NCBI GenBank assembly: GCA_019359745.1
Contig: JAHHGT010000006.1
Coordinates: 153,371-217,370 of the forward strand
DNA: 64,000 nt
DNA from: Aphanothece saxicola GSE-SYN-MK-01-06B
GTDB lineage: Bacteria; Cyanobacteriota; Cyanobacteriia; PCC-6307; Cyanobiaceae
Direction of reading: 5' to 3'
Shown here: piece after piece, positions 57,641-59,326 of the stretch
Position numbering within the stretch: the first letter of the stretch is position 1
Layout: each line of letters starts with the position of its first letter
The notes under the pieces: generated by a model
What the model was told of the DNA's origin: nothing
Database searches by the model: none
Seen by the model: only the letters and a program-made list of their open reading frames with translations
Made by a program: the position numbers and the translations under genes

Positions 57641-57669
57641 GAGCTTCGATGGCCCCTCGGGGGAAGCTC
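57641..57669. terminator. Hairpin between convergent genes (possible bidirectional terminator)
   Basis: GAGCTTC-(15 nt)-GAAGCTC, a 7-bp stem. There is no U-run on either side, and it overlaps the stop codon of the P450-HLIP ORF. Confidence 0.3.
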
Positions 57670-59326
57670 AACCGATGCCCAGCAGGACGCGGGTGAAGGC
57701 TTCCCCACCCATGGCAAATTCGGTGGCCAGCAGGGCAACGAAACCGAGCATGGCCATCCGGCCGTTGAACGTCTCAGCGCGCTCGTTGAAGCCCCAGCCG
57801 CCTGCAGCACGGGCCATTTCCAGGCGGGGCTCGCTGATCAACGCCACGGGGAGACCGCCATTTGCACCGGTAGCGGTGCTTCGAGGGTGTGGGCGTACCA
57901 GAAGTCCATCCTTCGGGGAGGGGCTGGGGATGACCAAGAGTGTCAGGTCCTGACCGGGCTCCAAGCCAAGACACAGCTGCTTGAGCAGACCCACCGCCAG
58001 CAGCCGGATTTCCAGCTCTGCCAGGGCCTTGCCCAAGCAGACGCGCTCGCCGCCTCCATAGGGCAGCAGAAAGACGGTCGTGTCGGGCTCGAGATGGCGC
58101 TGGGGCCGAAAGGCGGCCAGACCCGCAAGATCAGTGCCGTGGTTCTGGCTGGCGGTGATGCTCACCTGCACCACCCGGTCGGCCGGCACCATCACGCCCG
58201 CCAGGGCGATGGTCTCGCGGGTGCGGCGAAAGAACCCACCCACCGGCGGGGTGAGCCGCATCACCTCCTTCACCACCGCATCCAGCCGCGGCGCCCGCAG
58301 GGCGTCGTAGGCACTCACAGCATCCGCCTCTGCGGGTGGCCAGGACAAGCCGTCCAGCTCCTGCAGCAGCCAGTCCAGTTCGGCGGGGTGCTGCAGCAGG
58401 GTCAGCAACAGACAGCTCAGCGAGGAGGCGGTGGTTTCGTAGCCGGCGAACAGCAGCAGCAACAGCTGCTCCGCCACGTCATCGTCGGCGAGGGGGAGGC
58501 CGGCTTCATCGAGGCCGCCGGCCAGCAGATCGAGGCCACCAGCGGCGAGCGGGGCGCCCGAGGCCGCAGCGGCCTGGGCCTTCTGGAGCACACAGCTGAG
58601 GCGCCGCAACAGGCGCTTACGGGCCTGGCGGGCGCGAGCGAACGGGCTGCCCGGCAGGGCGAAGGGGAGGGAGAACAGGCCCTGGCACCAGGTTTCGAAA
58701 TCCTCGAACAGGGCATCGCGATCGGCGCCATCGAGCCCCAGCACCGTGGTGGCGATGACGCTGAAGGCAAAGCGCCGCAACCGCGGCACCAGGGCAACGG
58801 GCGCTGGCGCCGTCAACAGCTCCTGGTTGAGCCCCTCCACCAACGCCACGATCTCCGGGCTGTAGCGCTTCAGTGCCGCGGAAGCGAACAACTGCCCCAC
58901 CACCCGACGCCGGACCTTGTGATCGGCGCCGTTGCGGTTGGCCAGGGACAACGGTCCCAGCAACTGCCGCACACTGTCCGGCCACCAGCCCTGGATGGCA
59001 GCACCCTGGGCGAGGAGGTCGGACATCGCCTGCTCGCCGCGGATGAACACGGTGCGCTGGCCCAGCAAGCTGGTTTCAAAAACATCCCCGTAGCGCTCGA
59101 AGCGCGAGCGGGCGAAATCAGGGTCGCGAAGGAAGGCGAGGGTCTCGAGCACGCCAGCCATCGCTGGTGTGGAGGGGACGGGCCGAACGGTGGCGGGATC
59201 GAGTGGCAAGCGTTGGTGTCCTGGATGGATCCCAGGCTGGCAGCCAGGCGATGAGGGTGCGACGGCCCTGTGCGCCATCACCACGGCTGCTGCAGCCGCC
59301 AGGGGGGGGAGCCACCGTGGCAGCAC
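57668..59326 (-). CDS. Cytochrome P450 (CYP120-like) with in-frame C-terminal HLIP/one-helix CAB domain
   Basis: 552 aa with [11 protein letters not shown] (I-helix), EVMR (ExxR) and the heme loop [15 protein letters not shown]. P450 homology ends near [15 protein letters not shown]. A linker then leads into [43 protein letters not shown]. N-terminal start alternatives are 59326 and 59278. Confidence 0.85.
   Translation of the reverse strand: [552 protein letters not shown]

Follow-up and report, generated by a model that had tools for sequence, protein, structure and literature searches.

The window analysed here is a stretch of 64,000 nucleotides from contig JAHHGT010000006.1, which belongs to the metagenome-assembled genome (MAG) of Aphanothece saxicola GSE-SYN-MK-01-06B. 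On its minus strand, positions 57668..59326 form a single open reading frame (ORF) of 552 aa, counted from a GTG codon. In this frame, a complete CYP120-like cytochrome P450 continues into the helix of a high-light-inducible protein (HLIP), a one-helix domain of the chlorophyll a/b-binding (CAB) type. The sequence-only reading of this DNA had described such an ORF, and it was found exactly as described, with all of the motifs present. The start codon given there has to be revised. The probable coding sequence of the P450-HLIP fusion is 57668..59209 (minus strand), which encodes 513 aa between a TTG start at 59209 and a TGA stop at 57670-57668. A TTG or GTG codon at the sequence [L/V]P[L/F]DP is kept in every lineage, fused and unfused, among the relatives compared. 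The conserved peptide [L/V]P[L/F]DP..LRP.P.TPA precedes the ATG used by some database calls (497 aa). The NCBI entry MBW4531512.1 from the same MAG is the same protein, with 513 aa and the same TTG start, and carries the name "cytochrome P450". The conservation of this codon points to TTG 59209 as the likely start, and the GTG at 59326, with which the 552-aa product had been proposed to begin, is probably not used. In different public records the fused ORF is called with 497, 513, or 536 aa.

The catalytic domain of the CYP120-like P450 occupies positions 57887..59161 (minus strand). The P450 signatures, namely the I-helix (FAGYETT), the ExxR motif (EVMR), and the haem loop (FxxGxRxCxG), are all present and are kept in all relatives. 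In Pfam, PF00067 (p450) covers residues 74-460 of the 552-aa translation with a score of 124.5 bits (E 6.8e-36; cut-off 22.8). The NCBIfam search gave generic sub-threshold P450 matches only, and nothing for the tail. The best match in the PDB by sequence is 2VE3, the CYP120A1 of Synechocystis (E 3.6e-70), with an identity of 39.7% over 408 aligned pairs, where the criterion used for a CYP family is more than about 40% identity to a named family member. This alignment reaches "...LLVRPH", three residues short of the end of the CYP120A1 chain (444 residues). The same entry is the top Foldseek match of the AlphaFold2 model, with a template modelling (TM) score of 0.84. The assignment of the enzyme as CYP120-like, which had been made in the sequence-only reading, is thus supported both by sequence and by fold.

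Behind the P450 domain, a linker of about 27 residues (57806..57886) is followed by the HLIP/one-helix CAB domain (57671..57805), both on the minus strand. The tail helix carries the full ExxNGRxAMxGF motif, of which the pigment-ligand part ExxNGR lies at 57758-57775 (minus strand). The sequence-only reading had expected PF00067 and PF00504 on one polypeptide. Both were found, but PF00504 (Chloroa_b-bind) passes its cut-off of 22.3 bits on the tail alone: the full protein scores 20.4 bits, and the 74-aa tail scanned by itself scores 24.8 bits. PF26394, which is listed for some free HLIPs, was not detectable in the Pfam copy used. In the PDB, the tail matches chains of light-harvesting complex (LHC) proteins, RedCAP, PsbS, and HliD. 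The AlphaFold2 model has a mean predicted local distance difference test (pLDDT) value of 70. It comprises a P450 fold, an unstructured linker, and a predicted C-terminal helix at residues 475-499 of the 513-aa protein. The maximum Kyte-Doolittle value of the tail over 19 residues is 1.37.

The relatives of this protein were taken as the 120 closest sequences in a collection of 5.8 billion proteins. About 115 of the 120 have approximately 425-470 aa and stop 8-25 residues past the conserved last-strand segment, as had been stated for the family from the window sequence. In the longer relatives, the extra length comes from the N-terminus or from an internal insert only. The junction of the window, without a stop codon or a frameshift, is present in at least seven independent sequences. 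They are the window protein, which was found again in an independent read-set assembly (L005), P0002/L001, the isolates Synechococcus sp. CCY 0621 (L006; WP_286194903.1, NZ_JAFKRH010000052.1) and Cyanobium sp. AMD-g (L088; WP_254944371.1), a lake MAG (L012/P0252), and two further read-set assemblies (P0247 and P0251). Among the carriers are two isolates in culture, two MAGs, and a number of independent assemblies of read sets. The stretch of the fused protein that spans the junction is LLVRPRRRSTDTGENG. Together with the purifying selection on the helix described below, this means that the proposed in-frame fusion is genuine. As for the arrangement of two adjacent genes, which had been considered as the alternative, hli is separate from the P450 in some relatives, but none of the seven fused sequences listed above shows a stop between the two parts.

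The fused genes are monophyletic in a neighbour-joining tree built from the P450 domain, where they are nested among lineages without a downstream hli. The deeper branches (L008, L011, L004, L017, and L033) retain a separate downstream hli. Since the fused genes form one clade and the deeper branches carry hli as a separate gene, the fusion is a single derived event. It is confined to a single clade with about 7-8 members, a subclade of Cyanobium among the freshwater picocyanobacteria. When the tail was used to search 1.84 billion representative proteins, no other P450-HLIP protein was obtained; the long matches were LHC polyproteins and one NAD(P)-binding-CAB fusion.

The precursor of the tail can be seen in the relatives. 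A free-standing hli gene (82-96 aa) lies on the same strand downstream of the P450 in Cyanobium sp. Cruz-8D1 (L008), Aljojuca 7A6 (L031), two MAGs (L017 and L033), Synechococcus sp. CBW1107 (L004), and RedBA-s (L011). The helix of these P450-adjacent genes is almost identical to that of the window tail, and the overall identity is 69%. The sequence-only reading had called the tail very similar to the hli pair of the window itself, 7.5 kb away (49.8-50.4 kb). The identity to this pair is 44-47%, and it was ruled out as the source of the tail in favour of the P450-adjacent orthologue.

When the fused loci are aligned at the DNA level with the separate-gene loci, the P450 stop codon, the entire spacer including an HLR1-like element, and approximately 25 N-terminal codons of hli are missing. 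The fusion junction at 57874..57878 (minus strand) is a CACCG microhomology common to the 3' tail of the P450 (RRR-AT-AAG) and the 5' region of hli (IRG-AT-VTT). The breakpoints are located at CACCG/GCCACCG repeats in both the P450 tail and hli, and the joining unites two frames that were originally different. Compared with L008, the fused genes have lost 203 bp, and compared with L031, 142 bp. The mere loss of a stop codon between two adjacent genes is ruled out, because the separate-gene relatives show a promoter-bearing spacer of 100-500 bp and about 25 extra hli codons. These features, and the lack of a downstream hli in the closest unfused relatives (L007, L002, and others), indicate a deletion and not a point mutation. 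The hli slot behind the P450 is evolutionarily unstable. The course of the event can be reconstructed as follows. The ancestor possessed a CYP120-like P450 and, behind it on the same strand, a free hli of the HliA/B type with its own HLR1-like promoter element. One deletion of about 140-200 bp between the CACCG/GCCACCG microhomologies then took away the stop codon of the P450, the promoter between the genes, and about 25 codons at the beginning of hli, so that both reading frames became fused into one.

The promoter element lost in this deletion is GCAACAATCTGTTACAGT, which is conserved upstream of the P450-adjacent free hli genes and lies inside the deleted segment. The HLR1 sequence bound by RpaB has the consensus (G/T)TTACA(T/A)(T/A) N2 (G/T)TTACA(T/A)(T/A) (PMC6525291). 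The element fits 13 of the 16 specified positions and has the correct 2-nt spacer. No HLR1-like site was found upstream of the fused gene or inside it. The HLR1-like sequence TTTACACTCTGTTACAGT, with two mismatches, at 50360-50377 (minus strand) upstream of a free hli of the window served as the positive control. A promoter scan of 57400-59600 gave no sigma-70-like site. Expression of the tail would now be under the P450 promoter and not under the one controlled by HLR1/RpaB. HLIPs are small and free-standing and have their own HLR1/RpaB promoter, which responds to stress or high light, but the tail is joined to a 440-aa enzyme and its element is deleted. It should be mentioned that the hli ORF at 50193-50447 (minus strand), to which the control site belongs, is one of two tandem free hli genes in the window, and that the second half of TTTACACTCTGTTACAGT is identical to the element before the P450-adjacent hli in the relatives.

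The rates of non-synonymous (dN) and synonymous (dS) substitution were obtained by comparing the window with the other fused genes. In the P450 domain, dS is approximately 0.26 and dN/dS is 0.15-0.18. In the linker (27 codons), dN is 0.24-0.28, which is indistinguishable from the neutral rate given by the dS of the P450, and there are no indels. In the helix region (45 codons), dN is 0.01-0.03, about 10-fold below that of the linker. The contrast in non-synonymous changes between the linker and the helix is significant (Fisher p 3e-5 to 9e-5).

The linker can be aligned without any indel to the N-terminal arm of the free hli, TTEDGGRLNAFATEPRMEVVSAESG, and is colinear with it. The identity of this arm to the free-standing consensus is 0.33 in the fusion and 0.87 among the free copies, whereas the corresponding values for the helix are 81% and 89%. 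In the PDB, the ancestral arm, VTTEDGGRLNAFATEPRM, has a single match, namely the N-terminus of Psb34/Tsl0063, YTTDEGGRLNNFAIEPKV. The N-terminus of Psb34 is described as "very similar" to HliA/B and is implicated in binding to CP47/PsbH (PMC9458560). The arm shared by Psb34 and HliA/B indicates that the ancestral gene was an HLIP of the HliA/B type. The arm sequence of HliA/B, GGRLNxFAxEP, is present in the free copies but is not kept in the fusion, where one of the versions reads GARPEALTSEP. The linker is a degenerate remnant of this HliA/B/Psb34-type arm. To judge from these substitution patterns, the docking arm is no longer under selection, whereas the pigment-binding helix is still constrained.

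A recent, one-time gene fusion took place in one clade, and we consider it probable that the C-terminal helix acts as a membrane tether, likely a pigment-binding one, for a CYP120-like hydroxylase. The product of about 57 kDa would consist of an N-terminal cytoplasmic P450, an unstructured tether of about 27 residues, and one C-terminal transmembrane helix, in which every pigment-ligand residue of the LHC type (E-x-x-N-G-R) is retained. The helix would reside in the thylakoid membrane with its N-terminus facing the cytoplasm, the orientation of HLIPs and of the CAB domain of ferrochelatase. By pairing with a second helix, either its own or that of a free HLIP, it might bind chlorophyll a and beta-carotene. 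Tethering to the membrane and binding of pigment by the tail are plausible from the analogy with ferrochelatase. CYP120A1 is known to hydroxylate retinoic acid, retinal, and beta-apocarotenoids (PMC7014017). Since it acts on retinoids and apocarotenoids, a location in the membrane near carotenoid-containing complexes would be sensible for the fusion enzyme. A hydroxylase of the retinoid/apocarotenoid type might thereby be tethered where carotenoid breakdown products arise, and the ancestral CP47-docking function of the arm would have been given up.

Several observations weigh against the helix being a membrane tether for the P450. The confidence of the AlphaFold2 model is below 50 for the tail. 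The identity to CYP120A1 makes the substrate a guess. The dS of the helix, 0.06-0.09, is lower than that of the P450 (Poisson p roughly 0.02), which is unexplained; it could result from codon bias, from constraint at the nucleotide level, or from gene conversion. The P450 is located upstream of only 3 of the 16 free-standing hli orthologues among the metagenome matches listed, so that a prior functional link between the P450 and hli is not established. The "Rosetta-stone" argument, in which conserved adjacency stands for a functional link, is weakened by the same count. No fused copy was present among the matches listed in the scan of metagenome contigs with the tail, and the lack of hli behind the closest unfused relatives counts in the same direction. 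In addition, one fused lineage has a broken tail. The locus L087/P0248 (Logan ERR9580556, 3705-4340) has the fused junction, but a change of TGG to TAG replaces the Trp codon preceding GFNERAE and places a stop just before the helix. This tail also has a 74-bp deletion of the ExxNGR core, and its last 15 or so codons and the stop codon remain. The destroyed tail of L087 and the sister lineages without hli indicate that the tail is dispensable. The earlier proposal of a P450 brought by the fusion to photoprotective or photosystem II complexes has lost ground: the CP47-docking arm has decayed neutrally, the tail has been lost in L087, and the HLR1-like element has been deleted.

These observations could also be understood if the fusion were an accident in transit, that is, an in-frame deletion that was tolerated, with a tail that is useless to the P450 and is being lost. 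The fused genes would then be a snapshot of the loss of hli. The sister lineages in which hli is entirely absent, the nonsense codon and the 74-bp deletion in L087, and the neutral decay of the arm are all in agreement with this explanation. The same applies to the restriction of the fusion to one small clade, with none among the listed metagenome matches, and to an adjacency of P450 and hli that is lineage-specific (3 of 16 in those matches). However, the helix is nearly invariant and keeps all of its pigment ligands across a dS of approximately 0.26, whereas the adjoining linker has changed at approximately 24-28% of its non-synonymous sites. Furthermore, seven fused tails (five distinct ones from the fetched loci and two from database proteins) all retain the ExxNGRxAMxGF motif and the frame. 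An accident of this kind therefore seems somewhat unlikely to us, and the tether is preferred.

The tether might also be part of an adaptive new enzyme. This would be a thylakoid P450 on a chlorophyll/carotenoid-binding helix that pairs with free HLIPs or with the CAB helix of ferrochelatase and hydroxylates carotenoid cleavage products (retinal or apocarotenoids) where they are formed. Its activity or stability might be coupled to pigment occupancy, and it would represent a living model of the capture of the CAB domain by ferrochelatase. In this extended form, with a benefit from joining the two parts, the proposal is an unlikely one and is made tentatively.

The constraint on the helix might have a different cause if the gene had two products, a free HLIP of about 49 aa made by internal initiation, on which selection acts, and a P450 that carries the helix as a read-through tail. 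The sequence-only reading had pointed out an in-frame internal ATG as a potential start for such a protein. This codon exists at 57815..57817 (minus strand), but it is not conserved: the codon at 57817 is GTG in L001, L006, and L088, and GCG in L012. An ATG or GTG is thus found at this codon in four of the five fused lineages, and 49 aa is a normal size for an HLIP. Picocyanobacteria often initiate translation without a strong Shine-Dalgarno sequence, which also counts in favour of two products. However, the helix is still intact in L012 with its GCG codon, and the GTG is the ancestral Val codon of MEVV, which is not a start in the free genes. The hli promoter with its HLR1-like element has been deleted, and no promoter-like or HLR1-like site was found inside the gene; for these reasons a separately made 49-aa HLIP is unlikely as a conserved product, although it is conceivable for the window itself. 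As a whole, the explanation by two products is very improbable.

That a missed stop codon or frameshift has merged two genes, or that the locus is a pseudogene, is suggested by the origin of the window from a MAG and by an NCBI entry that once split 89 codons off the end of the CCY 0621 gene, but it is effectively refuted by the identical junction without a stop in isolates, MAGs, and independent assemblies, by the precursor arrangement and the exact deletion boundaries visible in the relatives, and by the purifying selection on both the P450 and the helix.

The split entry (P0121; NCBI/UniRef) begins inside the P450 of the CCY 0621 fused ORF and is named as a separate "chlorophyll a/b-binding protein". 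Another enzyme-like protein with a CAB domain is P0359 (451 aa), the NAD(P)-binding-CAB fusion from the search of representative proteins, which has an N-terminal NAD(P)-binding NmrA/SDR-like domain (PF13460, E 6e-34) and a C-terminal PF00504 (E 4e-13). It presumably resembles the partnership of Ycf39 with HLIPs. Contigs with this Cyanobium-type P450 at 80-86% identity (L010, L017, L022, and L026) are titled "Rhizobium sp. Q54", "Sphingobacterium thalpophilum", "Chitinophaga pinensis", and "Tabrizicola sp.", and the organism labels on these MAG records look wrong.

The upstream extension of the longest ORF, 59210..59326 (minus strand), is probably 5' untranslated or regulatory rather than coding, and the upstream start candidates in it are not conserved among the relatives. 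It contains a block, CGCCTGGCTGCCAGCCTGGG..CCA.CCAGGAC, at 59218-59250 (minus strand), which is 10-40 nt 5' of the TTG/GTG start and is conserved in all fused and unfused relatives, the distant L008 included. Within this block, positions 59235-59245 (minus strand) form the perfect palindrome GGCTGCCAGCC (GGCTG-C-CAGCC). The block could act as an operator or a structure of the 5' untranslated region that controls the P450. On the other side, a convergent ORF for a hydrophobic protein of 64 aa lies at 57446..57640 (plus strand). Its stop codon is 27 nt from that of the fusion, and it bounds the variable hli slot downstream. It is syntenic, and in L001, L002, L003, L005, and L088 it is the next ORF behind the P450 or the fusion. 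Across the relatives this ORF has 59-64 aa, and in the unfused relatives without hli its end is 5 nt away from the stop codon of the P450.

Searches of the literature turned up no account of a P450 joined to an HLIP, and fusions of any kind are absent from a survey of cyanobacterial P450s (PMC7014017). The impression of the sequence-only reading that the architecture is undescribed is consistent with this, and the architecture is rare. The architecture is also hidden by annotation, in that the protein is named "cytochrome P450", the CAB match of the full-length protein is sub-threshold, and in one pipeline the ORF was cut in two. Fusion of an enzyme with an HLIP has been discussed almost only for ferrochelatase, an ancient capture whose steps can no longer be retraced. 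For the P450, sequenced relatives preserve the precursor, the exact deletion, the fused form with its marks of selection, and a derivative that has decayed, and two carriers are strains in culture. This makes it possible to test what an HLIP helix does on an enzyme, be it anchoring, dimerisation, pigment binding, or regulation. It can also be tested which parts of an HLIP serve which job, as the docking arm decays and the pigment helix persists, and whether a CYP120-type hydroxylase uses carotenoid-derived substrates at the membrane.

The fusion can be compared with four known systems. CYP120A1 of Synechocystis sp. PCC 6803 (2VE3/2VE4) aligns colinearly with the P450 part, starting in the N-terminal region and reaching the last beta-strand, and shares all of the catalytic motifs with it, but it is a stand-alone, soluble protein of 444 aa without a tail. 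Other P450s are known as fusions, such as P450 BM3/CYP102 with a reductase and the peroxidase fusions of CYP5619 (PMC5919972). As in these proteins, a P450 domain is covalently joined to a second module by gene fusion. Their partners are redox or catalytic modules, whereas the partner here is, by its sequence, a putative transmembrane helix of the pigment-binding type from the LHC superfamily. The ancestral free gene resembles HliA, HliB, and Psb34 in its RLNxFAxEP arm, its ExxNGRxAMxGF helix, and its HLR1-like element. Of these features, the fused tail keeps the helix. Its arm has degenerated, its promoter element has been lost in the deletion, and the product is neither small nor free-standing.

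The closest parallel is ferrochelatase, in which a catalytic domain is followed by a linker and by a CAB helix at the C-terminus, presumably captured from an HLIP; this helix is involved in membrane association and dimerisation (PMC3563542). As in the type II ferrochelatase (HemH) of cyanobacteria and plastids with its CAB domain (ScpA), an enzyme that would lie on the cytoplasmic side is connected through a linker to one C-terminal helix with the chlorophyll-binding motif. The partner, however, is a haem-containing monooxygenase and not a haem-synthesising chelatase. The ferrochelatase fusion is ancient and universal in oxygenic phototrophs, whereas the P450 fusion is recent, confined to one subclade of Cyanobium, and dispensable, and its precursor is still visible. 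The fusion is thus a recent second example, after ferrochelatase, of an enzyme that captured an HLIP helix. An enzyme with such a helix is known from ferrochelatase; what is new is the P450 as the partner, the recency of the event, and the intermediate states that can be seen.

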